From the NCBI GenBank assembly GCA_963552295.1, contig CAUVJW010000001.1, positions 1 through 52,200 on the forward strand: a DNA stretch of 52,200 nucleotides, in the 5' to 3' direction. Under the pieces are notes generated by a model, which saw only the letters and a list, made by a program, of their open reading frames with translations, did no database searches and was not told the origin of the DNA. Shown piece by piece: positions 73 to 40,936 of this stretch (the first letter of the stretch is position 1; the number at the start of each line of letters is the position of its first letter). Position numbers and translations under genes: made by a program. The stretch comes from an uncultured Streptococcus sp. (GTDB lineage: Bacteria > Bacillota > Bacilli > Lactobacillales > Aerococcaceae).

Positions 73-233
73 CGTTCCCGCGACTGTTCCCGTTCCGAGG
101 AGGAGAGCATTTTGCCCGTTGCCTTGCGGTACGCCAAATGTACTAAAATCACACAGCGCATTTATTATTCCATATAGTTTCGTGCATTAATAAGAATGAG
201 AGCACTACTGTGTTAGAATTTCTCTTTGAAGTT

Positions 234-422
234 GACGATGAGAAGAATCGAGCGGATTTTATAATAGCAGTAATGGGGGATGGCATTCAAAGTGAATTAC
301 GTACGCTTGAAAATTTATTTTCTAGAGTACGTTTGAATCTTGAAAGAGCTTGAGACTATGGCTCAAGCCGGTGCCCCATTACAGCTATTATAAAAAAATC
401 CGCAAGGATTCGAATCATCGTC
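234..422 (+). repeat. Structured intergenic element, copy A (core; degenerate palindrome extends ~105-611)
   Basis: GACGATGA(234-241)/TCATCGTC(415-422) closes a long rod; GTGAATTA 292-299, TTTGAA 332-337, GAGAC-tat-GGCTC 352-364; about 90% identical to copy E over ~160 nt by manual alignment. Confidence 0.9.
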
Positions 423-547
423 TTAGGCTAACGCTCAAGAAGCACCATAAGAAATCCTTTGCTCAGTCGATGCACTACTTATTTTATAAAAAACTCACGA
501 AAAAGCGCTGAAATATGGTATTATAGTGAAATAAGGAGGAATGCACT

Positions 548-1123
548 GTGCGAATTATTTCAGGAGAATTTGGCGGAAGACGCTTAAAGGCAGTACCGGG
601 CCAAAATACTCGTCCGACGACTGACAAGATAAAAGAATCGCTCTTCAATATTCTTGGCGGTTATTTTGACGGAGGAGTCATGCTCGACATGTACAGCGGA
701 AGCGGAGCCGTTGCCATCGAGGCCGTCTCTCGTGGGATGGAACGTGCGTTTCTATTCGAGAACAATCGCCTTGCACAAAAGACGATTGAGCAAAATATTG
801 AGATTACAAAATCACCCGAGCAATTTCATTTAAAACGACAAAACGTGAAACAAGGACTCAAAACCATTGCGAGTGATCCAGCGTTTGAACCGTTCGAGTT
901 GGTGTTTATGGATCCGCCATATCGCCTACAAGAAATTGTAAAGGACATTGAGCAGTTGCAAGAGTTGAATCTAGTTTCTCCAGATTGCGTGATTGTCTGC
1001 GAGGTGGATAAGGAAGTGCAACTTCCAGAGCGGATTTTAGACTTTGAGCAATATAAGCGTGTGGAGTACGGCATTACAGCCCTAGTGTTCTTTGACCGTG
1101 CGACTAGCGAAGAGGAGGCTTAA
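548..1123 (+). CDS. rsmD: 16S rRNA m2G966 methyltransferase RsmD
   Basis: MRIISGEFGGRRL...RPTTDKIKESLFN, SAM motif DMYSGSGA, DPPY; GTG start with AAGGAGG RBS. Confidence 0.95.
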   Translation: MRIISGEFGGRRLKAVPGQNTRPTTDKIKESLFNILGGYFDGGVMLDMYSGSGAVAIEAVSRGMERAFLFENNRLAQKTIEQNIEITKSPEQFHLKRQNVKQGLKTIASDPAFEPFELVFMDPPYRLQEIVKDIEQLQELNLVSPDCVIVCEVDKEVQLPERILDFEQYKRVEYGITALVFFDRATSEEEA

Positions 1124-1124
1124 T

Positions 1125-1658
1125 ATGAGAAAAGCGGTAGTAGCAGGAAGCTTCGACCCGATTACAAATGGGCATTTAGATATTATCGAGCGAAGCAGTG
1201 AGCTCTTCGATGAAGTGATTGTGGTTTTATCGCATAATGTTCAGAAAAATTATTTATTTTCTTTAGATGAGCGGAAATCACTGGTTGAAGAGGTAATTGC
1301 GCATGTACCTAATTCCAGAGTGGTAGCCGTAAGCGGAGGCTTAACTGTAGAAGCAGCGGCACAATTAGGAGCTAGCGTTCTTGTCCGTGGCGTTCGAAAC
1401 GCAACCGACTTTGAATATGAAGCGACTCTTGCATCTCATAACCGTGTTCAAAATGGTGATGTTGAGACAGTATTATTACTCAGCAAAGAAGAGTACCGAT
1501 TTGTAAGTTCGTCAATGATGAAGGAATTAGCTCGATTTGGAGGGGACGTAACACCGTTTGTTCCAAGTGTAGTAGCCGATGCCTTACAAGAAAAATACAA
1601 AGATGCGCCTGAACGCACAATAAAAATGGATGAGGAGATAACAGATGTCAAAGGTTAA
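1125..1658 (+). CDS. coaD: Phosphopantetheine adenylyltransferase
   Basis: GSFDPITNGHLDII, RGVR..DFEYE, VSSS motifs; ATG 1125 after GAGGAGG preferred over 1092. Confidence 0.95.
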   Translation: MRKAVVAGSFDPITNGHLDIIERSSELFDEVIVVLSHNVQKNYLFSLDERKSLVEEVIAHVPNSRVVAVSGGLTVEAAAQLGASVLVRGVRNATDFEYEATLASHNRVQNGDVETVLLLSKEEYRFVSSSMMKELARFGGDVTPFVPSVVADALQEKYKDAPERTIKMDEEITDVKG

Positions 1659-2688
1659 GAAGATTATTATTGCAGCCTTAATTTTTGTTGTATTAGCGAT
1701 TGTTGCGATGATTCCAATCCCGTATGTGATTGAATCGCCAGGGACTGCAGAAGAAGTATCCCAATTTTTAACGATTAGTGGAGCAAAAGATGAGGATCCA
1801 GGATCACTGCGGGTGCTGACGGTGTATGTCGAGCAGGCGACCGTTTTAACGTACTTTAAGAAGTTCTTGAAGCATCACGAAATGGTTCCGTCTGAAGAGG
1901 TATTCGGGGATTATACGCCAGAAGAATTCGATGCCCTGCAAGATTTCAGTATGCGTAATGCGCGTTCAAAAGCGGTTCGAGTTGCTTTTGAAGCTGCTGG
2001 AAAAACGGTCGAACGACATGTAAATGGTATTTTCGTCACACGTGTGGATCCAAACTCTAATTTCCGTGACAAGTTAAAAGTTGGAGATATTATCGAAACG
2101 ATTGATGGAAAGAGCCCAGGCAATACCGATGAGAGCTTTGAAGATTTAAGAGACTATTTAGCAGGACTTGAACCAGGACATACGCTAGTCCTTCAAGTGA
2201 AACGTGATGATGCAACAATGACAATCAGCGCGAAGTTGAAAATGAATAGCCGTACTGGTGGTATCCGTCTTGGATTTGGCGGGGAAGTGGATGAAGATGT
2301 GACTTCTGACCCATCCGTTGAATTCGACGCACATGGCGTAAGTGGCCCTTCAGGTGGTTTGATGTTCACGCTTGAAATCTATAACCAAATTACGAATAGT
2401 CATTTGAAAAACGGACATAACATTGCCGGAACAGGAACGATTGAATTAGATGGAACGGTTGGACGTATCGGTGGAATTGATAAGAAATTAGTAGCTGCGG
2501 TTGAAGCAGGTGCGACAGTTTTCTTAGCACCTGATGATGAAATCACGGATGAAATGCGTGCACGTTATCCAGATATTAAATCAAACTACGAAGAAGTCAA
2601 AGAAGCGGCTGAAAAGCTAGGAACAGATATTAAAATTTATCCTGTGAAGACTTTGGATGAAGCTATTGAAATTCTAAAAAATCTATAG
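1645..2688 (+). CDS. ylbL: Membrane-anchored PDZ/Lon-like serine protease (YlbL/SepM family)
   Basis: N-terminal TM, PDZ region, SGPSGGLMFTLEI and IAGTGTI...GRIGGIDKK Lon-type motifs; conserved rsmD-coaD-ylbL synteny. Confidence 0.85.
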   Translation: MSKVKKIIIAALIFVVLAIVAMIPIPYVIESPGTAEEVSQFLTISGAKDEDPGSLRVLTVYVEQATVLTYFKKFLKHHEMVPSEEVFGDYTPEEFDALQDFSMRNARSKAVRVAFEAAGKTVERHVNGIFVTRVDPNSNFRDKLKVGDIIETIDGKSPGNTDESFEDLRDYLAGLEPGHTLVLQVKRDDATMTISAKLKMNSRTGGIRLGFGGEVDEDVTSDPSVEFDAHGVSGPSGGLMFTLEIYNQITNSHLKNGHNIAGTGTIELDGTVGRIGGIDKKLVAAVEAGATVFLAPDDEITDEMRARYPDIKSNYEEVKEAAEKLGTDIKIYPVKTLDEAIEILKNL

Positions 2689-2747
2689 CCAATGAGTCAT
2701 TTTTCTCATATCTTTAATTGGAGAAATCTTTTTAAGGAGTGAGAGGA

Positions 2748-3380
2748 ATGGCTTTTTTTGATGAGTGGAAAGAAAAATGGGAGTCGTGGAGTTTAGCGGT
2801 CAAAGGCGCGGTCATTGGTGGAGTGCTTCTTTTATTAGTTGGTATTGGGTCGTTTGTGTCTAAAAAAGAAGAAGCTGTGGAAGAAACCGAAGCGGTGGTA
2901 ACGACAGTCTTGGCGGAGAAAACGGAAGAAAGTACGACGCTAGAAGCGGTTATTTTCGTTGATATTAAAGGGGCCGTGAAAAAGCCGGGAGTCTATCAAA
3001 TGAAGGTTGGGGACCGTGTGAAAGACGCGATTGATGCCGCAGGAGGACTGACAGCGGAGGCAGATAGCCAGAAAGTGAACTTGGCGCAAAGAGTAGAAGA
3101 CCAGATGGTGATTGTTGTGCCAAAAGTGGGAGAAGAAGCTGAGGCAATTCCAGCGGGTGCAACGAGTAAAGAAGCATCCAAAGAAGGAAAAGTGAATATT
3201 AATACGGCAACGGTGGAAGAGCTGAAGACATTGAAGGGTGTCGGCGAGAAAAAGGCCGAGGCGATTATCGAATACCGAAAGAAGAATGGTTCGTTTAAGA
3301 CGAAGGAAGACTTGATGAAAGTCCGCGGCATTGGCAAGAAGCTCTTCGAGTCCTTTGAGGAAAGGATTGTGACGCAATGA
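2748..3380 (+). CDS. comEA: Competence DNA receptor ComEA
   Basis: TM, VDIKGAVKKPGVY SLBB domain, C-terminal HhH (KVNINTAT..EL..LKGVGEKKA..IIEYR). Confidence 0.92.
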   Translation: MAFFDEWKEKWESWSLAVKGAVIGGVLLLLVGIGSFVSKKEEAVEETEAVVTTVLAEKTEESTTLEAVIFVDIKGAVKKPGVYQMKVGDRVKDAIDAAGGLTAEADSQKVNLAQRVEDQMVIVVPKVGEEAEAIPAGATSKEASKEGKVNINTATVEELKTLKGVGEKKAEAIIEYRKKNGSFKTKEDLMKVRGIGKKLFESFEERIVTQ

Positions 3381-5704: not shown

Positions 5705-5751
5705 ACAAAGACTCGTTTTCAAGATAAACTAAAACAACAGGAGGCGAAGAA

Positions 5752-6783
5752 ATGGAATTTGAGAAACAGCTCAATCGAATTAAAAAAGGGCAAGTCAGTC
5801 TGGTTTATCTCGTTCAAGGGAAAGAACCGTACTTACAAGAGCTTGCACGTAAAGTATTTTTGGGCACCATTGTCGCTCCTGAAGATCAAGATTTGAACGT
5901 GGGACGATTCAATATGGATGAAGTGTCCGTTCAAACCGCGGTTCAAGATGCCGAGTCTGTGCCATTTTTTGGAGACCGCAGATTGGTTATGATTGATAAT
6001 CCAACGTTTTTAACAGGGGAGAAGGAAAAGAAATCCATCGACCATCAGTTGGACCGCCTACAAGCGTATTTAGAAAATCCGATGGATAGTTCGGTGATGG
6101 TTTTCTTTGCGCCGTACGAAAAGTTGGACCAACGTAAGAAAATCGTGAAACAGTTGAAGAAGGTTGCCGTTCTTCTCGATGCAAGCGAACTCTCAGAACG
6201 CGATGTGAGACAATACATCAAGGACTATTTACGTTCGCAACAATATGGCATTCAAGAAGAGGCGTTAAACACTTTACTCCTCAAGACACAATACTCGCTT
6301 ACCACTTGTATGAAAGAGCTTGATAAATTAATGGTTGCCGAAATTGGAACGTATTCCATTCGACTTGAAACGGTCGAGGCGTTAGTGGCTAAAACCTTGG
6401 AACAAAGCATCTTTGATTTTGGAGAAGCCATCCTGAACAAAGACAGCAAGCGTGCCCTTCAAATTTATCATGATATGCTATTGCAAAAAGAAGACCCAAT
6501 CAAAATGAACGCGATTCTATTAGGCCAATTCCGCCTATTGCTTCAAGTATCGTATTTGAAAAAAGCCGGCTACCAAGAACCCGAAATTCAAAAGACACTC
6601 GCAGTGCACCCGTATCGCGTCAAACTCGCACTCAACCAATGTCGTCGCTACGGAACACCATTATTGGAAGCAGCCTTCCAGCAATTAGTCGAAACCGAGT
6701 ACGCATTGAAAACCAGCGTCGGCATCAAAGAAATGCAATTGGAATGGTTCATCCTCCAATTTTGCGGCCAAAGAACGTTATAA
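5752..6783 (+). CDS. holA: DNA polymerase III delta subunit
   Basis: YLVQGKEPY, SVPFFGDRRLV, HPYRVK; canonical position after comEC. Confidence 0.92.
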   Translation: MEFEKQLNRIKKGQVSLVYLVQGKEPYLQELARKVFLGTIVAPEDQDLNVGRFNMDEVSVQTAVQDAESVPFFGDRRLVMIDNPTFLTGEKEKKSIDHQLDRLQAYLENPMDSSVMVFFAPYEKLDQRKKIVKQLKKVAVLLDASELSERDVRQYIKDYLRSQQYGIQEEALNTLLLKTQYSLTTCMKELDKLMVAEIGTYSIRLETVEALVAKTLEQSIFDFGEAILNKDSKRALQIYHDMLLQKEDPIKMNAILLGQFRLLLQVSYLKKAGYQEPEIQKTLAVHPYRVKLALNQCRRYGTPLLEAAFQQLVETEYALKTSVGIKEMQLEWFILQFCGQRTL

Positions 6784-6925
6784 TTAGTCTGTTTGAAACG
6801 TCGATATCTTATTAAAGATTTCGGCGTTGAGTTGTTTGTAAATAATTATCTAATTTTAATTAAAATTTGAGTTGAATTAATAAAAATATGTGGTACAATG
6901 TATATACAATTAAGGAGGGGTTAAA

Positions 6926-7144
6926 ATGAGTACAATTTCATTACGTTTAAATAAAGAAGAAGAGCGCCTTTTTAAAAATTATGCAGACTTTACCGGAGAA
7001 GGGTTAACGACCCTATTAAAGAAAGCATTAACTGAAAAAATTGAAGAAGAATATGATTTACAAGCTGTAAAAGAGTACGAAAGTGCTAAAGCAAATGGAG
7101 AAGTTATATTAGTTGACCATGAGGAATTCTGGGGAGACTTATAA
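6926..7144 (+). CDS. Type II antitoxin (RHH, RelB/DUF6290-like)
   Basis: 72 aa, TISLRLNKEE ribbon-helix-helix start, acidic C-terminus, TAATG overlap with toxin. Confidence 0.75.
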   Translation: MSTISLRLNKEEERLFKNYADFTGEGLTTLLKKALTEKIEEEYDLQAVKEYESAKANGEVILVDHEEFWGDL

Positions 7145-7419: not shown

Positions 7420-7428
7420 GAGAAACCC

Positions 7429-7704: not shown

Positions 7705-7710
7705 CAAAAC

Positions 7711-7759: not shown

Positions 7760-7880
7760 ATTTCGGACCCTTTACATTATTCGGGGAATATTTTTGGCAC
7801 CTTTTCCTACCCCGGCCACCCTTTCTTTTCCCCCTCCGCCTTCGAATTGATTGGGCTTCTTTTTTTATCTTTAATAATTT

Positions 7881-8131
7881 ACGCCTTACGGATAGCGCGT
7901 TAGAGTAGAACACAAACGAAGAACTCACTGGATTTCATCGTAATCATAATCGTGTTTCAGCAAGCAATGTGAATTACTGAGGGTTAGGGGTTTATCTCTT
8001 ACCCTCAGTTTGAAGCTTGCTAGACTTGAGACTTCGGCTCAAGTCGGTGCAATGATTATGATAACGATGAAAAAATCCAGAGGAGTTCGAAGGGTGTGTT
8101 CTATTCTTTTCATTCATTACCCGTAAGGCGT
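7881..8131 (+). repeat. Structured intergenic element, copy B
   Basis: ACGCCTTACGG/CCGTAAGGCGT and AGAGTAGAACACA/TGTGTTCTATTCT arms; AGCAA-t-GTGAATTA(7969)-CTGAGGG..CCCTCAG-TTTGAA-gc-TTGCT; GAGAC-ttc-GGCTC. Confidence 0.88.
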
Positions 8132-8147
8132 TCTTATTTTTGAGCAT

Positions 8148-8178
8148 AAAAAAAGAGCCCGAGATCAATTCTCAGGCT
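8148..8178 (-). terminator. rpsT terminator
   Basis: Minus strand AGCCTGAGA-attga-TCTCGGGCT-CTTTTTTT. Confidence 0.8.
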
Positions 8179-8183: not shown

Positions 8184-8438
8184 TTATTTGCTTAATTTTG
8201 CAGCAAGACGTGATTTATCACGAGAAGCTTTGTTTTTGTGGATTAATCCTTTAGAAGCAGCTCCGTCGATTGCTTTGTGAGCAGCACGTAATAATTCTTC
8301 AGCATTTTCAGCACCTTCAGCTACAGCAGCGTCAAATTTTTTGATAGCTGTACGCATAGCAGAAGTTTGAGCGTTGTTAGCAAGTGTTGACTTTTTGTTA
8401 GTACGAACACGTTTGATTTGTGATGCGATATTTGGCAA
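8184..8438 (-). CDS. rpsT: 30S ribosomal protein S20
   Basis: (M)PNIASQIKR...SAMRTAIKK...[19 protein letters not shown] start after GAGGGGTG RBS. Confidence 0.95.
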
Positions 8439-8611
8439 TGGGTTCACCCCTCTTTCATTTAACATGTATAATTACTGATCAGTTGTTTCCAACACGAACT
8501 ATTATACAAAAGTCCTACTTGAATTGCAAGCAAGGTATTGTGAAAGAACAAGACAGACAAACGGTAAAACTCCCGTAATGATGGTATACTAGAAAAGAAA
8601 GAGGTGAAGTC

Positions 8612-11290: not shown

Positions 11291-12283
11291 ATGGTAAATA
11301 TTGCAATTGTAGGAGCGACAGGTGTCGTTGGAACAAAAATGATTGAACGTTTAGAAGAAAGTAACTTACAAGTAGACCACTTATATCTACTTGCTTCAGC
11401 GCGTTCAGCAGGGAAAGTACTACAGTTTAGAGGAAAAGATTATGTAGTCGAAGAATTAACGGAAGACTCCTTCAAGCGTAATATTGACTACGCCATCTTC
11501 TCAGCAGGGGGCGGCACTTCATTGAAATTTGCGCCAATCGCAGAACGTGACGGCGTGATTGTTATCGACAACTCAAGCGCATGGAGAATGGATCCAGAGA
11601 TTGATTTAGTCGTACCAGAATGTAACGCACCAACATTAGAGCGTAAGATTATCGCAAATCCAAACTGCTCAACAATCCAATCGGTTGTGCCATTACGTCC
11701 ATTGCATGATGCATTTGGATTAAAACGTGTGGCGTATACAACTTACCAAGCTGTTTCAGGTTCTGGACAAGCAGGAATTAATGATTTAAGAAATGGGGAA
11801 AAAGGGGAAGCTCCAACAAACTACCCACACCCAATTTACAATAACGTATTGCCGCATATCGATGTGTTTTTAGAAAATGGCTATACAAAAGAAGAAATGA
11901 AAATGATTCAAGAAACTCGCAAGATTCTAGGCTTATCAGATGATGTAGCCATCACTGCTACTTGTGTACGTGTGCCTGTTTATAACTCACACTCTGTAGA
12001 AATCAATGTGACTTTCGAAAAAGATACAACACCTGAAGAAATTCGTGCGATTTTAGAAAAAGCACCTGGCGTAATCGTATTAGATAAGCCTGAGGAAAAT
12101 GTATATCCAACACCATTACAAGCGACTGGACATGATGAAGTGTATGTGGGACGTATTCGTCGCGACATCTCTCAACCTAACAGCTTCCACATCTGGTGTG
12201 TGGGTGACAATATTCGTAAGGGTGCAGCAAGCAACGCGATCCAAATTGCGGAGTATATTGAAGCGCACAATTTACGTAGATAA
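11291..12283 (+). CDS. asd: Aspartate-semialdehyde dehydrogenase
   Basis: GATGVVG, IDNSSAWRM, ANPNCST, DNIRKGAA. Confidence 0.97.
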   Translation: MVNIAIVGATGVVGTKMIERLEESNLQVDHLYLLASARSAGKVLQFRGKDYVVEELTEDSFKRNIDYAIFSAGGGTSLKFAPIAERDGVIVIDNSSAWRMDPEIDLVVPECNAPTLERKIIANPNCSTIQSVVPLRPLHDAFGLKRVAYTTYQAVSGSGQAGINDLRNGEKGEAPTNYPHPIYNNVLPHIDVFLENGYTKEEMKMIQETRKILGLSDDVAITATCVRVPVYNSHSVEINVTFEKDTTPEEIRAILEKAPGVIVLDKPEENVYPTPLQATGHDEVYVGRIRRDISQPNSFHIWCVGDNIRKGAASNAIQIAEYIEAHNLRR

Positions 12284-12288
12284 TTAAA

Positions 12289-12541
12289 TAGAAGACTGGG
12301 CACCTGGGTGACAGTATAGTGAACAATGTTGATTACTCCAAATCCTTACGGATATCTTCATAATAGCTATAACGTTGCACCGGTTCGAGCCTAGGTCTCT
12401 CACCTTTAAAGCCTCAAAGGGAGCGTACGGAATAAAATTCCTACGCTCCCTTTTTCGCATTTAATGCCATCCCACGTTATGGCTATTATAGAATCCGTAA
12501 GATTTTTCGTAATCAACTTTCTAATAAGGCCCAGTCTTCTA
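12289..12541 (-). repeat. Structured intergenic element, copy C (reverse orientation)
   Basis: TAGAAGACTGGGC/GCCCAGTCTTCTA ends; minus strand TTAAA-t-GCGAAAAA-GGGAGCGTA..TACGCTCCC-TTTGAG-gc-TTTAA, GAGAC-cta-GGCTC, CGGTG. Confidence 0.88.
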
Positions 12542-12648
12542 ATGATTATTTACTCCGCTGCACCCCACTGTAGGTATAAAAAAGGATTCGTTGAGGATGG
12601 AAAAACGTGATGTATCATAAATGATACAACTTTAGAAAGTAAAAAAGT

Positions 12649-21579: not shown

Positions 21580-21618
21580 AAAGAGGGGTGAAAGTTTTTC
21601 ACCCCTCTTTTTCTTTTT
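21580..21618 (+). terminator. groEL terminator
   Basis: AAAGAGGGGTGAAA..TTTCACCCCTCTTTTT. Confidence 0.85.
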
Positions 21619-21637: not shown

Positions 21638-21867
21638 GTGCTTACTAAAAAATGAACTTCGTTCAAAACTTCGAACACTGAAGGATTTGTTTATAATAGC
21701 TGTAATGGGACAACGGTTCGAGCCTGTCGTCTCTCACCTCAAAAGCCTCAAAGGAGCCGTACGGAATGACTTCCTACGGCTCCTAATTCGCATTTTGTGT
21801 TATTCCCCATTACTGCTACTATAAAATCCTTCGTGTTCTCCGTTTTGAACATTTTTTTGAGTGATAC
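21638..21867 (-). repeat. Structured intergenic element, copy D (reverse orientation)
   Basis: GTTCAAAAC/GTTTTGAAC arms; minus strand CAAAA-t-GCGAATTA-GGAGCCGTA..TACGGCTCC-TTTGAG-gc-TTTTG, GAGAC-gaca-GGCTC. Confidence 0.88.
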
Positions 21868-21934
21868 TTATAAAAAAGAGGATGAATAGAGAAAGAAAAT
21901 AAGACCAACAGAAATGTTGGTCTTATTGTTGTGC

Positions 21935-26887: not shown

Positions 26888-28273
26888 ATGAGTATTGGAA
26901 CAGTTGCTGAAATTACAAAAGCCGTCGAAGCGATTGATTATCAGTCAGCACATCGATTTGAAGTTATCGAATCTGTGGCCTTCGATACACGAAAATTAGG
27001 ACCAAACAGCCTTTTCGTGCCACTTCAAGGGCAAACAGACGGACATGATTATATTGAACAAGCGATTCAAGCCGGCGCAACAGCCGTGTTATGGGGCAAA
27101 CAAGATGTAACGCCACCAGATGGAATCTGTGCCATTTGGGTGGATGACCCACTTCAAGCTTTTCAAAAATTAGCGAAATGGTACTTAGAAAAAGTATCGC
27201 CACGCATCGTTGGAATCACAGGTAGTTCTGGGAAAACAACGACAAAAGATATGACAGCAGCCGCTCTAGGCGCACGCTACCGTGTCTACAAAACACAAGG
27301 AAACTTCAATAACGATATCGGCCTACCACAAACGATTTTAGATATGCCCGAATCTACTGAAGCGCTTGTCTTAGAGATGGGAATGAGCGAATTCCACGAA
27401 ATCGAATTCTTATCAAAATTAGCACGCCCAGAAGTTGTTGCGATTACGCTCATCGGTGAGTCGCATATGGAACAATTGGGAAGCAAGGAAGGCATAGCCA
27501 AAGCCAAACTGGAAATCCTTTCTGGACTACAAGAAAATGGAACCTTTATTTATCCAGCGCATGAAGAGTTAATTACAGCAGGGATTGCGCAAGCTGAAAA
27601 ACCAGCAACCTTCAAAATCGTTACAGTCGGTGAAGGAAGCAAAGAACTATCAGCTAAGAACATCGAACTTTATTCAGACCACACCGCGTTTGAATTAGTG
27701 ACGCCATCAGAAACCGTGGCGGTAACATTACCAGTCCTTGGCGCGTACAATGTTTCAAATGCACTACTTGCGATTGAAATTGCACGCACATTAGATGTTC
27801 CACTTTCAGATACCGTGTCCGCCTTAGCAAACTTCGAATTGACGAAGAACCGTACGCAATGGGTGAAAGGCCAAAACGGAGTAGCCATCCTAAATGATGC
27901 TTACAACGCCAGCCCAATCGCGATGAAATCGGTCATTAAATCATTTGTTTCAGTCGAAGCAGCAGGCCGTCGCGTCCTCGTTCTTGGGGATATCCGCGAA
28001 CTCGGAGAACATTCGAAAGAATTGCACGCCAGCATCTCAGAAGTCATTTCTCCAAGCGAAGTCGCACTTGTGTACTTGTACGGCGAAGAAATGGAAGCAC
28101 TCTATGATGCGTTGAAAGACCAGTTCGATTCAACTGCCCTTCACCATTACATGGACAAAGAAGCGTTGATTGCAGACTTGAAAGCTGAACTCAAAGAAGG
28201 CGACCAAGTTCTTATAAAATCAAGCAACGGCACAGGCTTACTAGCAGTTGTCGATGCCCTAAAAGCAGAATAA
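26888..28273 (+). CDS. murF: UDP-MurNAc-tripeptide--D-Ala-D-Ala ligase
   Basis: GITGSSGKTTTK, NFNNDIG, NDAYNASP, LGDIRELG. Confidence 0.95.
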   Translation: MSIGTVAEITKAVEAIDYQSAHRFEVIESVAFDTRKLGPNSLFVPLQGQTDGHDYIEQAIQAGATAVLWGKQDVTPPDGICAIWVDDPLQAFQKLAKWYLEKVSPRIVGITGSSGKTTTKDMTAAALGARYRVYKTQGNFNNDIGLPQTILDMPESTEALVLEMGMSEFHEIEFLSKLARPEVVAITLIGESHMEQLGSKEGIAKAKLEILSGLQENGTFIYPAHEELITAGIAQAEKPATFKIVTVGEGSKELSAKNIELYSDHTAFELVTPSETVAVTLPVLGAYNVSNALLAIEIARTLDVPLSDTVSALANFELTKNRTQWVKGQNGVAILNDAYNASPIAMKSVIKSFVSVEAAGRRVLVLGDIRELGEHSKELHASISEVISPSEVALVYLYGEEMEALYDALKDQFDSTALHHYMDKEALIADLKAELKEGDQVLIKSSNGTGLLAVVDALKAE

Positions 28274-28285
28274 CAAATATAAAGT

Positions 28286-28320
28286 AAAGCGAGAGACGCA
28301 CCAACGTCCCTCGCTTTTTT
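28286..28320 (+). terminator. murF terminator
   Basis: AAAGCGAGAGACG..CGTCCCTCGCTTTTT. Confidence 0.75.
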
Positions 28321-28392
28321 CGTCCCCTCATGGAGAACTACCCATTATAAAGTGTCCCCATTTCTCAACCGCACCACGAGAAGCAAACACTC

Positions 28393-28668
28393 CCGCCTCC
28401 TCCCGCTTTTTACAGTTTGGAATGCGCTGTGATTACGGGCGGAAAATCTAGCGGATTCAATAGTATCAGTAATGGGGGATAGCATTCAAAGTGAATTACG
28501 TACTCTTGAAAATTTTTTCTAGAGTACGTTTGAATCTTGAAAGAGCTTGAGACCGTGGCTCAAGCCGGTGCCCCATTACAGCTATTATTGATAAATCCGC
28601 AAGGATTTGAAGCCCGTAAAGTCTTATTCCTTAAGCATTTTTAAAGAATAAAAAGCAGGAGTCGGCGG
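28393..28668 (+). repeat. Structured intergenic element, copy E (palindrome extends ~28336-28751)
   Basis: TTACGGGC/GCCCGTAA, GCGGATT/AATCCGC arms; GTGAATTA 28491; GAGAC-cgt-GGCTC; close to copy A. Confidence 0.9.
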
Positions 28669-28678
28669 TCTGTATTCT

Positions 28679-28707
28679 TTGCATTCTCGCGGGATGCGTG
28701 CTATACT
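28679..28707 (+). promoter_or_regulatory. Sigma-A promoter of cshA
   Basis: TTGCAT-17 bp-TATACT with extended TG. Confidence 0.7.
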
Positions 28708-28861
28708 ATTCGCTGAGTTGAGAAATGTACACACATTTATAATAGATAGTTTGAAATTTAAACGATTGTAGAAGTCTGGTGCTCTTACGAAAAGCTCCAG
28801 GCTTTTGTTATGAAGGGAAATCCCTCGTGTGCTTCTCACCGAAGTATCCAAGGAGGAAAAT

Positions 28862-30391
28862 ATGAAATTTAATGAATTAGGATTGGATTCTGCCTTACTA
28901 GAATCTATCGAAAAAATGGGGTTTGAGGAAGCAACTCCAATTCAAGCACAAACCATTCCAAAGGCCTTAGCAGGTTTAGATGTGATTGGACAAGCGCAAA
29001 CAGGGACTGGTAAAACAGCCGCATTTGGTTTGCCAATGCTTCAAAAAATCGACCCAAGTAAAAAAGGCGTACAAGGACTTGTTATCGCACCAACTCGTGA
29101 ACTTGCGATTCAAACACAAGAAGAATTGTTCCGTCTCGGACGCGACAAAAAAATTCGTGTACAAGCGGTTTACGGTGGCGCGGACATTAACCGTCAAATT
29201 CGCCAATTAAAAGAAAATCCACAAATCGTTGTGGGAACTCCAGGTCGTCTTTTAGACCACATTTCACGCCGTACATTAAAGCTTGCGACAGTGGAAACAC
29301 TTGTCTTAGACGAAGCGGATGAAATGTTAAACATGGGATTCTTGGAAGATATCGAATCGATTATCAAACAAGTTCCAGAAAACCGCCAAACACTTTTATT
29401 CTCTGCGACAATGCCAGATGATATTAAACGTATCGGTGTTCAATTTATGAAAGATCCAGAGCATGTTCGTATCAAATCAAATGAGATGACTGCGACATTA
29501 ATCGATCAATATTTCGTAAAATGTAAAGACTACGAGAAATTCGACATTATGACACGTTTATTAGATGTTCAAACGCCTGAATTAACGATCGTATTCGGAC
29601 GTACAAAACGCCGTGTAGACGAATTAGCACGCGGACTTGAAATGCGTGGCTATCGTGCAGAAGGAATCCACGGAGACTTAAGCCAACAAAAACGTATGAG
29701 CGTTCTTCGTGACTTCAAGAACAACCATTTAGACATCTTAGTCGCTACAGACGTGGCAGCACGTGGACTAGATATCTCAGGCGTAACGCACGTGTACAAC
29801 TACGATATCCCACAAGACCCAGAAAGCTATGTACACCGTATTGGACGTACAGGCCGTGCTGGTCAAGAAGGAATGTCTGTAACATTCGTGACACCAAACG
29901 AAATGGATTACTTACGTGTGATTGAAGAATTAACACGCAAACGTATGACAAGCCTTCGTCCACCAACGCAAACAGAAGCCTTGGAAGGACAAACAAAAAC
30001 AGCCATCGAGTCTATCGACGAAATGATGAAAACTGTGGAACCAAGACGTTTCAAAGAAGCGGTATCTTACTTATTAGACGAGTACGAACCAGAAGAATTG
30101 GCAGCTCTATTACTCAAGAGCATGATTAAAGACCCAACTGAAATTCCAGTTAAAATCACGCCAGAACGTCCATTGCCTAGCCGCAAACGTGGCAACAGCC
30201 GTGGAAACTACAACCGTAGCGACCGTAAAGATAACCGAGGACGTAACGGAAAAGGAAGCTTCAAGCGCAAAGAAGACCGTCGTGGCCGTGGCTTAGAAGA
30301 CGAATATACACGCGGATATAAAGGGAAAGATTCTCGCCGCCGTAACAACAAAAAGAAATCTGACAAAGGATTTACCATCCGTCAGAAATAA
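28862..30391 (+). CDS. cshA: DEAD-box RNA helicase CshA
   Basis: Q motif, [32 protein letters not shown], basic C-tail; AAGGAGG RBS. Confidence 0.95.
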
Positions 30392-33864: not shown

Positions 33865-33884
33865 TAGTTTAACGGAGGCGTCAT

Positions 33885-34709: not shown

Positions 34710-34766
34710 GACGAGCGCGATATTGTTGCAAGCACATCACCATAATGGTAGAATATTTTGTATATT

Positions 34767-35002
34767 AGAGCGATGAACAAGAGGAGTAAAATGACTTTGT
34801 TTACGAGAGAGGGAAGACTTGGTGAAACTTCCTAGCAGATTCATTTGAAGGTAGCTTGTGAGCTTACTCTACGAAATGCAGTAATAGAGTACGGAGACGA
34901 CACTTCGTTACCAACATCGAGGCGTAATGAATGATTACGCGAATATTAGGTGGTACCACGAAATCAATCGTCCTATGGAGAGTGTCTTCATAGGATTTTT
35001 TT
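34767..35002 (+). promoter_or_regulatory. Valine T-box riboswitch leader
   Basis: Stem I AGAGA/GGTGAAA motifs, GTA (Val) specifier at 34851, T-box AGGTGGTACCACG 34948-34960, terminator 34971-35002; promoter TTGCAA(34726)-17-TAGAAT. Confidence 0.93.
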
Positions 35003-35036
35003 ATTGGACACAAACAAGATACAAGGAGGAAAATCA

Positions 35037-37679
35037 ATGGCTAAAGAAATGTCATCTAAGTTTCAACCACAAGAAGTTGAAGCTGGTAAATATCAATGGT
35101 GGGTTGATTCAGGTGTCTTCCATCCAAACGAAGATCCAAATGCTGAACCTTATTCAATCGTTATCCCGCCACCAAACGTAACAGGGAAATTACACTTAGG
35201 ACATGCTTGGGACGTAACGTTACAAGACATGATTATCCGTCAAAAACGTATGCAAGGGTTCGACACTTTATGGTTACCAGGGATGGACCATGCTGGGATT
35301 GCAACTCAAGCAAAAGTAGAAGAAAAATTACGCGGAGAAGGTTTGTCTCGTTATGACCTTGGCCGTGAGAAGTTCCTTGAACAAACATGGGAATGGAAGG
35401 AAGAGTATGCCAGCCATATCCGAGAACAATGGGCAAAAATGGGGATTTCTGTAGACTACCGCAGAGAGCGTTTCACATTAGATAAAGGGTTATCTGACGC
35501 CGTGAAGAAAGTCTTCGTAACTTTATACGAAAAAGGCTTAATCTACCGTGGTGAGTACATCATCAACTGGGACCCTAAAGCCAAAACATCATTATCCGAT
35601 ATCGAAGTTATCCATAAAGACGTAGAAGGCGCGTTCTATCATATGAACTACCCTCTAGCAGACGGAAGTGGATTCCTAGAAATCGCAACAACTCGTCCAG
35701 AAACACTTCTTGGAGATACAGCGGTTGCGGTTCACCCAGACGACGAACGTTACCAAGCGCTTATCGGGAAAACAGTTATCTTGCCGTTAGTAAACCGTGA
35801 AATTCCAATCATTGCTGACGAATACGTTGAGCAAGATTTCGGAACAGGGGTTGTAAAAATCACTCCAGCGCATGACCCTAATGACTTTGAAGTAGGGAAC
35901 CGTCACAACTTACCTCGTATTAACGTGATGAACGATGATGCGACAATGAACGAGTTAGCAGGTAAATACGAAGGCATGGACCGCTTTGCTGCGCGTAAAG
36001 CCATCGTGAAAGATTTGGAAGAAGCTGGCCTTCTTGTGAAAATCGAAAAACATTTACACAGCGTTGGTCACTCAGAACGTACAGATGTCGTTGTTGAACC
36101 ACGTCTTTCAAAACAATGGTTCGTTAAAATGGGACCTTTGGCAGAACAAGCCATCAATGCGCAACGTGAAGAGGGCGACAATACTGTAAACTTCTACCCA
36201 CCACGTTTCAATGATGCGTACTTACGCTGGATGGAAAACATTCACGACTGGGTAATTTCACGTCAATTATGGTGGGGACACCAAATTCCAGCTTGGTATC
36301 ATAAAGAAACAGGCGAAGTATACGTAGGCATGGAAGCGCCAAGCGATATCGAAAACTGGACACAAGATCCAGACGTATTAGATACTTGGTTCTCATCTGC
36401 GTTATGGCCATTTTCAACAATGGGTTGGCCAGACGAACAAGCAGCTGACTACAAACGTTATTATCCAACGAACACACTTGTAACAGGATACGACATCCTT
36501 ACTTTCTGGGTAAGTCGTATGATGTTCCAAGGATTAGAATTTACAGGCAAACGTCCATTCAAGAACGTTTTAATTCACGGATTGATTCGTGATAGCCAAG
36601 GTCGTAAGATGAGTAAGTCTCTTGGAAACGGGGTTGACCCAATGGAGGTTATCGAGCAATATGGTGCCGATGCGCTTCGTTGGTTCTTAGCAAACGGTTC
36701 TGCTCCAGGGCAAGACGTTCGTTACTCAACAGACAAGATGGATGCTGCATGGAACTTCATCAACAAGATTTGGAATGCAAGCCGTTACGCATTAATGAAC
36801 GTGGGCGACTTAACAGCGGACCAAGTGGATATCACTGGTGAGAAGACACTTGCGGATAAATGGATTTTAACGCGCTTGAATCAAACGATTGGCAAAGTGA
36901 CAGAACTCTTCGAGAAATTCGAATTCGGTGAAGCAGGACGTCTCTTATATCGCTTCATCTGGGATGATTTCTGTGACTGGTATATCGAAATGTCGAAAGA
37001 AACATTAGCAGGGGACGACGAAGCTGCGAAATTAACAACACGTAGCATTCTTGTATATGTATTAGACAACACATTACGTCTATTACACCCAATCATGCCT
37101 TTCGTGACAGAAGAAATCTGGCAATCTGTTCCTCACGTTGGGGAATCATTAGTGGTCGCAACTTATCCAACAGTTCACCCAGAACAAATGGATGAAAAAG
37201 CAGCCGAAGAAATGGAATTCTTAATGGACTTTATCCGTTCAGTACGTACGGTTCGTAATGAAATGAACACACCATTATCAAAACCAATTAACATCATTGC
37301 GAAAGTGAGCGACGCTGCGCACTACGCGATCTTGAAAGAAAACGAATCTTACATTGCACGCTTCTCAAATCCAGAAGAATTCGTGTATGGTGAAGACGTT
37401 GAAGCGCCATCTGATGCGGTTACTTCAGTCATCACAGGTGCTGAAATTTACTTGCCGTTAGCAGGGCTAATCAACATCGAAGACGAAATCGCTCGTCTTG
37501 AAAAAGAAGCAGAGAAATTGCAACAAGAAGTGGATCGTGTCGAGAAGAAATTATCGAACGAGAAATTTGTGGCAAAAGCTCCTGAAGCGGTTGTTGAAGC
37601 TGAACGTGCAAAAGGTGCGGACTATCAAGCACAACGCGAAGCCGTGTTAGAACGTATCGCAACATTAAAGAAAATCTAA
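35037..37679 (+). CDS. valS: Valine--tRNA ligase
   Basis: [19 protein letters not shown]-terminal coiled coil; ATG 35037 after AAGGAGG. Confidence 0.98.
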
Positions 37680-37786
37680 TCCGTTTCAATGGCGGGGAGA
37701 GCGTATGAAGTGTCATGCGCTCTCTTTTGTATGTTCCAAAGAGTCATTTTCTGTTATGATAAATGAGGAAAACAGGAGGTGAGTGA

Positions 37787-39058
37787 ATGATTCAAGAGTG
37801 GTTAAAAAAGAGCGAGAGTATTCCGCGTAAACATGGATTGTACCGCATGGAGGCTATCCTAGAAGCACTTGGAAATCCAGAACGAGGGTTGAAGACTATT
37901 CATATTGCTGGAACGAATGGAAAAGGGTCCACTGCGGCGATGGTAACGGCCTTTGCGAAGGCGCATGGATTGCGAGTAGGGACATTCACTTCACCACATA
38001 TGGACAGTATTAAGGAACGGATTCAGCTAGACGGAGTGCCTCTAGGGGAAGAGCCGTTCTGGCAAGCCGCATCGGTCGTAAGAGAGGTGGAGAACCGCTT
38101 ATTCGAAGAGTGGGGCGCCTTTAACTATTTTGAGATTTTAACGGCGATGATGTTTGTCGTCTTTCAACAGGAAGCTGTCGACCTTGCAATTATTGAGGTC
38201 GGGATTGGAGGTCTTCTCGATAATACGAATGTTGGGCATCCACTCGTCAGTGTCATTACGACGATTGGGTTGGATCATCAAGACTTACTCGGAACTACGT
38301 TGGAAGAAATTACGGCGCAAAAAGCAGGGATTATTAAGGCTGGGCAGCAAGTGGTTGTCGGGCCAGTTACGCGTGAATGTATGGATGTGATACATAGTAC
38401 CTCTAGTAAACAAGGTGCAACAGTGCAGGCGTTTGGGGAAGATTTTTCACTAGTAGAAGATTCGTATCAAGATGCAGTATTCACGATTTCGCTGAAGCAG
38501 TTAGCCCTTAACGGAACCTTCCAAAAGGAGAATGCGACTGTTGCGATTCGAGCGTTTCGCGCGTGGATGGAAGCTACGGGTAGAAGTGTGCAGGCCGAAT
38601 TCATCGAGGCGGCATTACAAGTGGTTTCCTGGCCAGGGCGCATGGAAGTATTGCAAGCGACACCGCTTGTGATCATCGACGGAGCCCATAATTTACCAGC
38701 TATCGAGCGACTCGTTCAAAACATGACGGCTCACGTTGGCAAGAAACAGACGCTGTTATTTAGCGCGCTCACTCGAAAAGATAGTCAACAGATGCTTCTA
38801 AGGTTGCAGGAAGCTCTTCCTGACGTGAACATCATCTTGACGAGTTTCCATCCTTCAAGAGGCATGTCGATTGCTAGAAGTGATGTGGAAGCGTACTTGG
38901 ATTCTCCACAGGTTTCTTATGAAGAAAGCTTTGAAGACGTCATCGACCGTTTCGCCAGTGTAACAGACGATAAGACCGAATTATGGGTGACGGGGTCATT
39001 GTATTTTATCGCCGAAGTTCGACATTGGTGGAAGAACCGTAAGCCCAAAGAAGAATAG
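37787..39058 (+). CDS. folC: Folylpolyglutamate synthase/dihydrofolate synthase
   Basis: HIAGTNGKGS, FTSPH, EVGIGG.LD.TN, WPGR, DGAHN, GSLYF. Confidence 0.93.
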   Translation: MIQEWLKKSESIPRKHGLYRMEAILEALGNPERGLKTIHIAGTNGKGSTAAMVTAFAKAHGLRVGTFTSPHMDSIKERIQLDGVPLGEEPFWQAASVVREVENRLFEEWGAFNYFEILTAMMFVVFQQEAVDLAIIEVGIGGLLDNTNVGHPLVSVITTIGLDHQDLLGTTLEEITAQKAGIIKAGQQVVVGPVTRECMDVIHSTSSKQGATVQAFGEDFSLVEDSYQDAVFTISLKQLALNGTFQKENATVAIRAFRAWMEATGRSVQAEFIEAALQVVSWPGRMEVLQATPLVIIDGAHNLPAIERLVQNMTAHVGKKQTLLFSALTRKDSQQMLLRLQEALPDVNIILTSFHPSRGMSIARSDVEAYLDSPQVSYEESFEDVIDRFASVTDDKTELWVTGSLYFIAEVRHWWKNRKPKEE

Positions 39059-39101
39059 ACATCGTAACTCTTTGTAGAGAAAACAAAGAGGAAGTGTCAC
39101 A

Positions 39102-39785
39102 ATGATTGAATCAAAATTATTAGAAGTGCCTTTAAGCGCTATGCCACGAGAACGCCTCGAACGGTATGGCGCTAAAGTGCTTGAAACGCATGAATTACTC
39201 GCGATATTACTGCGAACAGGGTCCAAGGATTTAAACGTCCTGCAACTGGCGGTTGTTGTCTTAAACACCTTCGAGGACTTGCATTCGCTGAAGATGGCGA
39301 GCCTGGACGAACTCATGCACATTAATGGCATCGGCAGAACCAAGGCAATTGAACTCAAGGCAGCGATGGAACTTGGGGTGCGCTTAAGTAATGCCGCGCA
39401 AATGAAACTCGGGAAGATTACGTCCTCCAAGATGGCCGGCCAGTGGATTGTGCAGGAGTTGAAGGATGCCTATCAGGAACATCTTGTCGCCTTGTATTTG
39501 AACACGAAAAACGAGATTATCAAGAAGAAAATGATCTTCATCGGTGGTTTGAACAGTGCAGTGGCGCATCCTAGAGAAATCTTCCGGGAGGCAGTACGGT
39601 TTTCGGCGGCGCGCGTCATCATTGGCCATAATCACCCAAGCGGAAATCCCGAACCCTCCCAAGCGGATATCGATTTTACACGTCGCTTGATGGAGTGTGG
39701 TGAACTCATGGGCATCGAGCTTCTAGATCATTTTGTAGTCGGAGGAGAGGAGTACATTTCTTTAAAAGAATTCGGGGCTTTTTAA
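39102..39785 (+). CDS. radC: RadC/UPF0758 JAB-domain protein
   Basis: PRERL...ELLAILLRTG, HPREIF, HNHPSG..PS.AD, LLDH. Confidence 0.93.
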   Translation: MIESKLLEVPLSAMPRERLERYGAKVLETHELLAILLRTGSKDLNVLQLAVVVLNTFEDLHSLKMASLDELMHINGIGRTKAIELKAAMELGVRLSNAAQMKLGKITSSKMAGQWIVQELKDAYQEHLVALYLNTKNEIIKKKMIFIGGLNSAVAHPREIFREAVRFSAARVIIGHNHPSGNPEPSQADIDFTRRLMECGELMGIELLDHFVVGGEEYISLKEFGAF

Positions 39786-39948
39786 AAACGACTCAAAAGA
39801 ATGTGAAAAGTTGAATTTTAGAAAAAGATGAAAACAGATTGTTTTCAATTTTCACGAAAAATAATATTGAAAATTAACGAAACGATTCGGAAAAAACGCA
39901 CAAAACGGCAATTGTTCTACTTAATTCTCAGTGAAATCGGAAATACTC

Positions 39949-40083
39949 TTGCAAATTTGCCTGTGAGATGTTATACTTAGGTTGTGTTTTTGTTATGTAA
40001 AGAAATTGTGTAAGATATTACTCCTTTCGAACCATTAGCAAGAATATCAATAACAAGTGCTATGGCACAAGGAGGAAATGTTC
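39949..40083 (+). promoter_or_regulatory. cspA promoter and long 5' leader
   Basis: TTGCAA(39949)-17-TATACT(39972) with extended TG; ~100 nt UTR typical of csp genes. Confidence 0.6.
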
Positions 40084-40284
40084 ATGGAACAAGGTACAGT
40101 AAAATGGTTTAACTCAGAAAAAGGTTTTGGGTTTATCGAACGTGAAGGTGGAAACGATGTATTCGTACACTTCTCAGCAATCCAATCAGAAGGATTCAAA
40201 ACATTAGAAGAAGGACAAGCAGTTCAATTCGATGTTGAAGAAGGCGCTCGTGGACCACAAGCAGCTAACGTAGTTAAACTATAA
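40084..40284 (+). CDS. cspA: Cold-shock protein
   Basis: [27 protein letters not shown]; terminator 40302-40328; exact paralogue name uncertain. Confidence 0.92.
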
Positions 40285-40490
40285 TTTAACTTAAACTTTG
40301 ATACCACCGGTTTTCCGGTGGTTTTTTTGTGCGCAAAAACAGAAGAGTCGAAGCTTAAAATGTACAAATTTGGCCATGTCCATATATGGCCTTTTTGTCC
40401 TCCCCCTCCCAAGAATTTCTTTTTATTTTTGTCCTTTTTTAGTAAGTTGGTTTCAAAATTATTGGTGATTTTTTGTTAGAAGCTGCCCCA

Positions 40491-40750
40491 GCTGGAATGG
40501 GAGAAACAAGTGCGAATCGATTTTTGAAAAACGAAGAGTCTTCGGATTCTATAGGAATAATAATAGCGGTCATAATCGATGTGAATTACTGACTCTGGAA
40601 ATTCATTTCCTAGAGTCAGTTTGAAGCTCGATAGGAAACGAGACCTGGGCTCGTTCCGGTATAGCTATTGTTGTTCCTATGAAGATATCCGAAGGTGTTT
40701 GTAGTTTTTCAAAACAGCACAAAACATCTAATTGTTTCTTCCATTCCAGC
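40491..40750 (+). repeat. Structured intergenic element, copy F (palindrome extends ~40412-40873)
   Basis: GCTGGAATGGGAGAAACAA/TTGTTTCTTCCATTCCAGC arms; ATCGA-t-GTGAATTA(40581)-CTGACTCT..AGAGTCAG-TTTGAA-gc-TCGAT; GAGAC-ctg-GGCTC. Confidence 0.88.
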
Positions 40751-40936
40751 CGAAGGCTCACCAGTTTTTTACACAAAAAATATCACCATAATATTACAGA
40801 AACCGTTTTTATATTACGAAATAAAAAAGTTTCCTAAAAATCTATAAAATACAAGAATAAAAAGCTAAATTCTGCTATACTAGAATAGAATTCTTACAGC
40901 CAAGTCTGTAGAAGAATTATCTAAGGAGGAAACAGT

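Follow-up and report, generated by a model that had tools for sequence, protein, structure and literature searches.

A 52,200-nt stretch of an uncultured Streptococcus sp. placed by GTDB in the Aerococcaceae (assembly GCA_963552295.1, contig CAUVJW010000001.1, positions 1 to 52,200 of the forward strand; here called the window) carries six copies (A to F) of a hairpin repeat, and the DNA on the 5' side of this repeat was usually found to be an inverted, decayed copy of the host DNA on its 3' side. The same arrangement was significant in 52 of the 96 full copies collected from the assembly of the window itself (G000; 1.43 Mb, 154 contigs, 83% complete) and from a complete relative (G023; 1,965,422 bp chromosome, 99% complete); its polarity was fixed, the inverted segment was absent where the repeat was absent, and it decayed faster than its source. 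Copies were read on the strand that carries the motif GYGAAWWA (the element strand), along which the 5' and 3' flanks were named; the hairpin is called the core, the inverted segment the 5' arm and the host DNA that it resembles the 3' partner. A sequence-only reading of the window had described these inverted flanks and had explained them by fold-back synthesis during insertion or activity of the element; the observation was confirmed and generalised, and the interpretation was supported in part. The best explanation is probably polar snap-back or template-switch synthesis seeded by the hairpin and followed by decay.

Mirrored flanks and their polarity

A mirror score was obtained for each copy by local alignment of the 5' flank with the reverse complement of the 3' flank. 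Window copies were scored at the arm coordinates proposed in the sequence-only reading, with 1000 dinucleotide shuffles per copy; genome-wide controls were flank pairs taken across copies and the direct (not reverse-complemented) orientation. G000 gave 71 core matches, 53 of them near full length and 43 with 300-nt flanks (copy A, with only 240 nt upstream, was left out of this 43-copy set), and G023 gave 95 element matches, 53 of full length. Many of the 96 copies in the two-genome set are orthologous pairs and hence non-independent.

Self scores of the 43 G000 copies had a median of 34; cross-copy pairs gave 19 and direct-orientation pairs 18. Signal was strongest beside the core and had reached background level at a distance of 150-200 nt. 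Copies that exceeded the 95th percentile of the cross-copy control numbered 32/43 at 0-50 nt from the core, 19/43 at 50-100 nt, 8/43 at 100-150 nt, 4/43 at 150-200 nt and 1/43 at 200-300 nt. In the two-genome set the 52 significant mirrors were those above the 99th percentile of the same control; the arms were colinear around the core in 44 of them and non-colinear in 8, and they often started 1-5 nt from the core, that is, at the hairpin base.

Open reading frames (ORFs) of at least 100 aa that overlapped an arm by at least 10 nt were counted in the 52 significant mirrors; 30 overlapped the 3' arm and 5 the 5' arm. One of these five was a false ORF across tRNA genes, two were G023 ORFs without a G000 orthologue and one belonged to a non-colinear mirror; three of the five look spurious. 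The false ORF (110 aa, G000 C4:24264-24593) reads across tRNA genes and a terminator; the copy downstream of it (C4:24664) has the best-preserved arms seen (~100 nt, score 74). Among the 44 colinear mirrors the 5' arm was the shorter in 34, equal in 7 and the longer in 3. The next gene lay at a median of 235-251 nt in the 5' direction and 60-82 nt in the 3' direction, and of the two gaps the 5' one was the larger in 45/53 and 28/37 copies. In G023 the 3' side faced a convergent stop codon in 40/53 copies (median distance 42 nt); at G023 copy 1782381 the mirror takes in ~130 nt from the 3' end of the convergent gene, which by eye we take to be recR. Together with the empty sites and the drift rates given below, the overlap counts support the 3' partner as the original and the 5' arm as derived, as the sequence-only reading had proposed.

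The element strand lay on the lagging side in 37/53 copies. Mirrors of the same polarity were found on both replication orientations (15 lagging, 10 leading; hand count), which agrees with the earlier claim of one polarity whatever the orientation of the copy; replication direction therefore does not set the polarity and was rejected as its cause. The mismatch spectrum between arm and partner was flat, with no A bias, and mutagenesis of the diversity-generating retroelement (DGR) or editing type was thereby ruled out. On the element strand, the 25 nt that adjoin the distal arm end on its outer side were rich in pyrimidines and poor in G (C 0.30, T 0.34, G 0.16), and C-rich 12-mers were present in 27/96 5' flanks on the element strand and in 3/96 on the other strand (background ~4%). 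An origin of the C-rich tracts as inverted ribosome-binding sites was rejected, as they occurred in 17/63 copies at gene ends and 9/27 at gene starts. The motif AGCAC was counted 47 times on the element strand and 8 times on the opposite strand of the 96 5' flanks; it lay 28-33 nt outside the arm end in 7/44 arms, too few for a conserved 5' module of the element.

In the window, the sequence-only claim that every copy is mirrored stood for copies A, B, C and E (0/1000 shuffles each, z 5.6 to 11.6) and, at 6/1000, for copy F; its support was weak for copy D (15/1000), and genome-wide it did not extend to the copies below the 99th percentile. Control scores were at most 16 for cross-copy arm pairs and 2-15 for the direct orientation. 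The gene names given earlier to the neighbours (RsmD, S20, Asd, GroEL, CshA and MreB) were all upheld by matches above NCBIfam cut-offs. Copy A (plus strand) has its core at 241-416 (nhmmer 164.8 bits; covariance model 167.7 bits; RNA fold -76.1 kcal/mol, z -10.1), a 5' arm at 105-240 in which the promoter, ribosome-binding site and first ~20 codons of rsmD recur in inverted, decayed form, and a 3' partner at 417-611 that runs from the rsmD upstream region into the beginning of the gene (ORF 548-1123); 105-184 aligned with the reverse complement of 496-611 with a score of 28 (z 5.6). Likeness of the arm to the rsmD ribosome-binding site and first codons was clearer in related species; orthologous arms were compared in five species, among which the arm varied freely and rsmD itself did not.

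Copy B (plus strand; core 7917-8093, profile search) lies between an arm at 7838-7914, which includes a decayed inverted rpsT terminator and aligned over 3-79 nt from the core (score 35, z 7.1), and a partner at 8095-8177 that holds the intact rpsT terminator (rpsT ORF 8184-8465, minus strand). The whole of 7838-8177 folds as a single 340-nt hairpin with the core at its tip (DNA fold -82.9 kcal/mol, z -13.7). Copy C (minus strand; core 12335-12509, covariance model 179.2 bits) has a partner at 12276-12334 made of the last asd codons, the stop codon (ORF 11291-12283) and spacer, and an arm at 12511-12553 (2-44 nt from the core; score 30, z 7.5); a perfect 13-bp repeat brackets the element just past asd. 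At copy D (minus strand; core 21668-21842, profile search and covariance model) the proposed arms (21873-21886 and 21598-21612) scored 18 (z 3.1) on a 9-nt A/T-rich match that is weak alone, and no significant mirror was recorded in the genome-wide local alignments. Copy E (plus strand; core 28440-28613, profile search and covariance model) gave the highest score (38, z 11.6), with an arm at 28270-28425 (15-170 nt from the core), of which the best-conserved block (28336-28369) is identical in G023, and a partner at 28635-28811 in the cshA upstream region (cshA ORF 28829-30391). Copy F (plus strand; core 40531-40705, profile search) has an arm at 40449-40509 by strict alignment, extended to 240 nt from the core by permissive alignment, and a partner at 40732-40804 in the mreB upstream region (mreB ORF 40937-41938); its support was moderate (score 33, z 3.4). 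Directly upstream of copy F, an Rfam cspA thermoregulator match (39986-40329, plus strand; 79.1 bits, gathering score 78) covers a small cold-shock-like gene and terminator. Elsewhere in the window, a T-box leader at 34764-34978 (plus strand; 130.6 bits against a gathering score of 93) extends over the annotated start of a 909-aa ORF (34950-37679).

Empty sites and decay of the arm

Most G000 loci were common to G023. Both outer flanks were placed in G023 for 38 G000 loci, 6 of which had no element between them; in the reverse direction, 0/33 G023 loci placeable in G000 were element-free, so no G023-specific copy with an empty G000 site was found. The element was present at locus A in 26/26 clade genomes (23 whole, 3 cut by contig ends) and not present at the 4/4 sister-clade loci examined. 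In three locus A orthologues (L012, L035, L036) the central core belonged to another subfamily and the outer stem and arms were orthologous, indicating that one copy was replaced by another via gene conversion.

Site #13 (G000 C3:25638) is polymorphic among close relatives. Its empty alleles, from the same and from a second subclade, share an identical short spacer and lack both arm and core, and the empty state is therefore ancestral. Filled alleles carry an additional ~38 nt, the core and an additional ~39 nt with no host DNA replaced; the arm mirrors host promoter DNA past the insertion point, and the C-rich tract aligns to host DNA of the empty allele. The 9-nt host promoter spacer mirrored by the arm differs between filled and empty alleles and varies among the empty alleles too. 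Inspection of the junctions by eye in one clean filled/empty pair showed no direct repeat. At site #17 (G000 C3:27869) the arm consists of the inverted last five codons and stop codon of the adjacent gene, the terminator being intact beside the arm, and the second subclade has neither arm nor core. Apparent empty alleles of site #17 in a close subclade were rejected as such: they are deletion scars that arose between short direct repeats, with loss of the core and retention of the 5' arm (and, in L230, L231, L233, L235, L240 and L243, also of the element's 5' base). L238 differs in its internal deletion, and L246 carries ~190 nt of another hairpin-rich sequence inside the core. No palindrome was present at the insertion point of the empty alleles of #13 and #17.

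At locus F, G023 and G044 lack the element and have the 3' partner; in G023 there is no arm, and the partner is present from ~40770 onward. One-copy, two-copy and recombinant alleles of this locus were seen in other genomes (L263, L267, L270, L261, L280), so unequal recombination between copies is ongoing. In place of copy F, G023 has a 3.6-kb insert (1564898-1568532) flanked by the csp gene and mreB; it contains a 1033-aa ORF with a signal-peptide-like N-terminus. The arm is thus added DNA: true empty sites have the 3' partner and lack the arm, which is the outcome of the empty-site comparison that the sequence-only reading had called for.

Arms and partners were compared between G000 and G023 at 17 orthologous loci. 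Arms were 91.2% identical and partners 95.8%, so that the 5' arm evolves about twice as fast as its partner between species. The arm and its own partner were 89.2% identical with 8.5 gap nt, as against 1.2 and 0.8 gap nt between orthologues; arms are therefore less constrained than partners, and most deletions predate the split of G000 and G023. The earlier description of the arm as mutated when made did not hold up as a specific claim, as ordinary decay with early deletions explains the arms equally well: copying may have been imprecise from the start, or long palindromes of near-perfect match may soon have been disrupted. Long palindromes are unstable. Quick break-up of near-perfect arms fits the palindrome instability described in PMC3315005.

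The core family, its distribution and candidate enzymes

The core is a hairpin of ~176 nt (~190 nt including the base), built of a long outer stem and two inner hairpins, with the conserved motifs GYGAAWWA, TTTGARGCTT, GAGAC and GGCTC unpaired. In 36 copies and 49 pairs, 96.4% of the cells were paired and both sides had changed in 38/49 pairs, values reached by 0/500 shuffles and by none of the slid controls. In 57 copies the element strand had 76 G:U pairs against 26 A:C pairs; it is therefore the strand that folds single-stranded, as RNA or DNA. Template switching alone can maintain paired stems according to PMC8794818, and covariation therefore need not all reflect selection. The 8-12 bp innermost beside the core are near-perfect copy-specific inverted repeats, and next to the core the 5' flank is rich in A and the 3' flank in T. 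T runs of the kind seen at terminators were judged by eye to end several copies from other genera (G143, G089, G051) on the element strand; copies of the Granulicatella adiacens group do not end in such a run. Rfam release 15 gave no match to the element at gathering score across the whole window, chance-level matches only on copy E (E up to 10) and nothing on 9 core copies from other genera.

Median identity of cores within G023 was 66% (1378 pairs; 88.6% for the most similar pair), and there has been no recent copying: all copies and duplication events are old. Flanks of different copies shared no likeness above control level, and 3' transduction or longer shared ends of the element were rejected on the same comparison. 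Tandem arrays with 240-350-nt spacing were observed, at G023 1275221/1275534/1275781 and in other clusters.

By BLAST, the element was found in 19/24 other genomes of the genus and in 0/16 from other families; the element-bearing clade includes G. adiacens, and the load is ~70 to 95 copies per genome in G. adiacens-like bacteria. The covariance model detected weaker members of the family (80-100 bits, against 160-188 in the clade). In a survey of the order it matched 25/151 genomes counting G000 (24/150 others), in 9/47 genera and three families, with 31 matches in Aerococcus sanguinicola, 128 in Granulicatella seriolae and 7 in Desemzia incerta; the core family was also recorded under the genome labels G162, G143, G146, G089, G120, G083, G170, G034, G074 and G051. 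It was not found by this model in 12 other named genomes or in the sister clade (0/5 genomes). The core is an undescribed, strongly structured, multi-copy family of the Lactobacillales that has no Rfam family.

Flanks of 59 copies from ten genomes with related cores were scored for the mirror (one of 60 copies was dropped for a short flank, and G. seriolae was sampled with 5/128 copies). Four exceeded the 99th percentile, against ~0.6 expected, and 6 the 95th; two to three of the passing copies were from G. seriolae. Gaps to the neighbouring genes were near symmetric (97 vs 82 nt). The mirror therefore belongs to the G. adiacens group and not to the whole family, which, with unmirrored related cores in nine genomes of other genera, counts against the earlier view of the duplication as the insertion signature of the family.

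Enzymes were surveyed in five genomes, three with the element (G000, G023 and G007) and two without (G009 and G001). Reverse transcriptase (RVT_1, PF00078) was absent from G000, G023, G007 and G001, with four genes in element-free G009 (four places, frames of 579-638 aa, probably group II introns). Y1_Tnp (PF01797) gave 0 matches in G000 and 0 in G023, 2 in G007 and none in G009 and G001; the IS200-like element of G007 was considered as a mobiliser and rejected, having no likeness to the core. The TnpB zinc-ribbon domain was found in none of the five genomes, IS110 in element-free G001 only and primase-polymerase (Prim-Pol) in G000 only (C5:31493-31942). An SbcD-like ORF was present in 5/5 genomes irrespective of the element, its 40-63 bits falling short of the 77.65 cut-off; loss of SbcD as a lineage-specific cause was rejected, as the SbcD-like gene occurs in both clades.

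The intergenic palindromic repeats of bacteria (MITEs, REP/BIME, ERIC, BOX, RUP, Correia) are likewise multi-copy and hairpin-forming, often lie at gene ends, are sometimes co-transcribed with terminator or RNA-stability roles, and have short direct target duplications or none; we know of no such family with an inverted copy of one flank. MITEs have near-identical copies and a cognate transposase, whereas the copies here are 66% alike (median) yet 96% paired, and among the transposase families searched (Y1_Tnp, TnpB and IS110; others were not searched) none was present in G000 and G023. IS200/IS605 elements and their PATE and REP-RAYT derivatives are strand-specific and hairpin-dependent, with no direct target duplication and no flank copies. 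The present element resembles them in strand specificity, hairpin dependence and strand-linked orientation, and apparently, judged by eye at site #13, in lacking a direct target duplication; it differs in that no Y1 transposase co-occurs with it in G000 and G023 and in that the insertion sequence of G007 is unlike the core. In parvoviruses, which replicate by rolling hairpin, a linear single-stranded genome has a terminal hairpin that primes its own copying, with a Rep nuclease. Fold-back priming of the own strand would be alike here, but the element is a chromosomal repeat with one internal hairpin and no replicon; its copies are orthologous, and no Y1 or Prim-Pol co-occurs with it (Rep families proper were not searched). 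A retroelement (retron, DGR or group II intron) finds no counterpart in the absence of reverse transcriptase from G000, G023 and G007 and of A-biased mismatches.

Origin of the arms and what they mean

Hairpin-seeded polar snap-back or template-switch synthesis with later decay is, on balance, the probable origin of the arms. Fold-back would have been seeded repeatedly by the hairpin, at the DNA level, in the ancestor of the G. adiacens group. The hairpin would form on the strand complementary to the element strand: this complementary strand, made from the 3' flank through the core, would fold once the hairpin was complete, and its 3' end would snap back, copy its own strand (the 3' flank of the element) and then rejoin the template. 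The product would be a segment of inverted host DNA, 30 to ~200 nt long, that separates the hairpin's 5' base from the pyrimidine-rich boundary. The new arm, being non-functional, would be quickly shortened by deletions and would then drift; selection would continue to act on the 3' partner, be it the end or start of a gene, a terminator or a promoter. Extra DNA that starts at the hairpin base, mirrors filler next to the core as well as host DNA and stops at a pyrimidine-rich end has the geometry expected of snap-back synthesis; this much of the fold-back mechanism proposed earlier was borne out, and its rolling-hairpin replicon and dedicated nuclease were not. The data show the mirror, its polarity, the arm as added DNA and its faster decay; the snap-back step, the strand of the event, its possible trigger (a nick or a stall at the 5' edge) and its timing (at insertion or later) we infer.

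Experimental and comparative precedents exist for fold-back or template-switch synthesis: palindromes nucleate self-centred inverted duplications through hairpin intermediates (PMC3315005), and template switching makes reverse-complement copies and extends stems (PMC8794818; PMC13100816). Template-switch mutation and inverted-repeat expansion are like the present case in that one event lengthens a hairpin stem by a reverse-complement copy with no dedicated enzyme (PMC8794818; PMC13100816), and a new reverse complement of adjacent DNA that continues an existing stem was indeed found. Compared with such template-switch products, the copies here are 30-200 nt and not a few to tens of nt, are a net insertion at the single site that can be judged (#13), were seeded by one repeat family at >50 loci and lie on a fixed side of an asymmetric core whatever the replication orientation; either arm may be the source in template switching, whereas here the 3' arm is (30 vs 5 by ORF overlap). 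In the palindrome duplications of Escherichia coli (Darmon et al. 2010; PMC3315005), an interrupted palindrome likewise lies at the centre of the inverted duplication, and the proposed steps are a nearby break, degradation, an intrastrand hairpin and copying. The single hairpin of copy B and the colinear arms of 44/52 mirrors agree with a palindrome-centred duplication. The E. coli duplications are described there as large, unstable and arising in sbcCD recA mutants (PMC3315005), whereas those here are short, fixed in wild genomes, conserved and polar. No paper on this element, or on repeats with inverted flank copies, was found in the PMC open-access subset and bioRxiv, subscription journals not being covered.

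Several observations weigh against snap-back synthesis seeded by the hairpin. A symmetric hairpin by itself gives no reason for snap-back on one strand only, and since related cores lack the mirror the hairpin alone is not sufficient. No significant mirror was found in 44/96 copies, and copy D is weak. The events are old; with no recent arm of near-perfect match among those seen, the mechanism is reconstructed from remnants. The HUH/Y1 nuclease, reverse transcriptase or Prim-Pol that the sequence-only reading had suggested looking for did not co-occur with the element, nor did TnpB or IS110, in the five genomes (other families were not searched). Site #13 has ~25 nt of filler between core and host, without another match in G000 or G023, and the 9-nt spacer mirrored by the arm differs between its filled and empty alleles; at this site alone the opposite direction of copying is not strictly excluded. 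Closeness of the element to the genes on its 3' side helps the ORF-overlap count; the length asymmetry of the arms and the empty sites are independent of that closeness.

An alternative that we consider unlikely couples the fold-back to integration: the arm would be made while a new copy is laid down, and the inverted flank would be the 'target duplication' of the element. A host 3' end would prime on a single-stranded element strand (DNA or RNA), copy the hairpin, snap back, copy the host strand and rejoin. Polarity would be automatic if one element strand only served as template, and the excess of G:U over A:C pairs on the GYGAAWWA strand fits such a template. The joint presence or absence of arm and core at the true empty sites #13 and #17 is also in its favour, as is the #13 arm, which mirrors the ~25-nt filler too, as if everything 3' of the core had been copied; and the patchy distribution of the family (no match in the sister clade even with the covariance model, and matches in G. 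seriolae, Aerococcus and Desemzia) indicates that the family moves. Against it, related cores elsewhere have no mirror and near-symmetric gene gaps, so that fold-back is not a general mode of insertion; no reverse transcriptase was found in G000, G023 and G007, no donor was found for the #13 filler, and there are no young copies. In a stronger form, which we hold to be distinctly unlikely, the family would be a new hairpin mobile element that moves by target-primed copying of the single-stranded hairpin with obligatory snap-back, the inverted target duplication being its signature; host polymerases or an unrecognised enzyme would do the copying, and insertion would take place beside pyrimidine-rich tracts. 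If true, this would be a transposition chemistry without a described bacterial counterpart.

It is improbable that the arms were kept or recruited by selection for a function as RNA that pairs with the end or start of the adjacent gene (cis-antisense, masking of a ribosome-binding site, or a hairpin that stabilises 3' ends) and owe nothing to polar mutation. The structural constraint or homogenisation evident in the core (96.4% paired, 38/49 pairs changed on both sides, 0/500 shuffles), its fixed placement beside genes (40/53 copies, median distance to a convergent stop codon 42 nt) and the pyrimidine-rich, G-poor 5' flank would suit such a function, but the arms drift at about twice the rate of their partners and are riddled with deletions, their signal is at background by 150-200 nt, the rsmD arm is free to differ between species where rsmD is not, and an 80-nt complement is beyond point mutation, so that a copying event would still be needed. 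Small shares of the stretch were present in five sequencing runs; four of them, in the form of contigs (one taken to be RNA only by guess), give no information on strand or transcript ends, and their pieces on the core derive from other copies. Plant microRNA genes are said, by Allen et al. in 2004, to have been born by inverted duplication of their target genes; like the present arms they have an inverted gene part beside a gene, a long hairpin and a decaying arm, and unlike them they are eukaryotic, not repeat-seeded and not polar.

Insertion into pre-existing palindromes such as terminator hairpins is highly improbable as a general account. The near-perfect innermost 8-12 bp, the A-rich 5' and T-rich 3' sides and the 13-bp perfect repeat around copy C would be expected from it, and for the innermost few bp only it could survive; for the long arms it is refuted, since they hold coding sequence of rsmD, asd and many other genes, copy B is flanked by a full terminator and, opposite it, a decayed one, the empty alleles of #13 and #17 have no palindrome and the terminator at #17 is intact beside the arm. 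An artefact of the fragmented metagenome assembly, or chance likeness of AT-rich flanks, is refuted by the same arms at orthologous loci in the complete 1.97-Mb chromosome and in >20 assemblies, with normal divergence, and by shuffle, cross-copy and direct controls that all lay below the observed scores.

For annotation, the arms call for caution, as pseudo-fragments of rsmD, asd and other neighbours lie beside the real genes. If hairpin-seeded snap-back or template-switch synthesis is the correct explanation, one small hairpin family wrote dozens of short inverted gene fragments into these genomes, always on the same side, and left a natural genome-wide record of fold-back or template-switch synthesis; work on fold-back synthesis has so far centred on engineered palindromes of E. 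coli and yeast and on cancer genomes. The constant polarity would then imply a step confined to one strand, whether a nick, a stall or a single-stranded intermediate, and long hairpins complementary to a neighbouring gene would have a one-step origin, providing raw material for antisense regulation.

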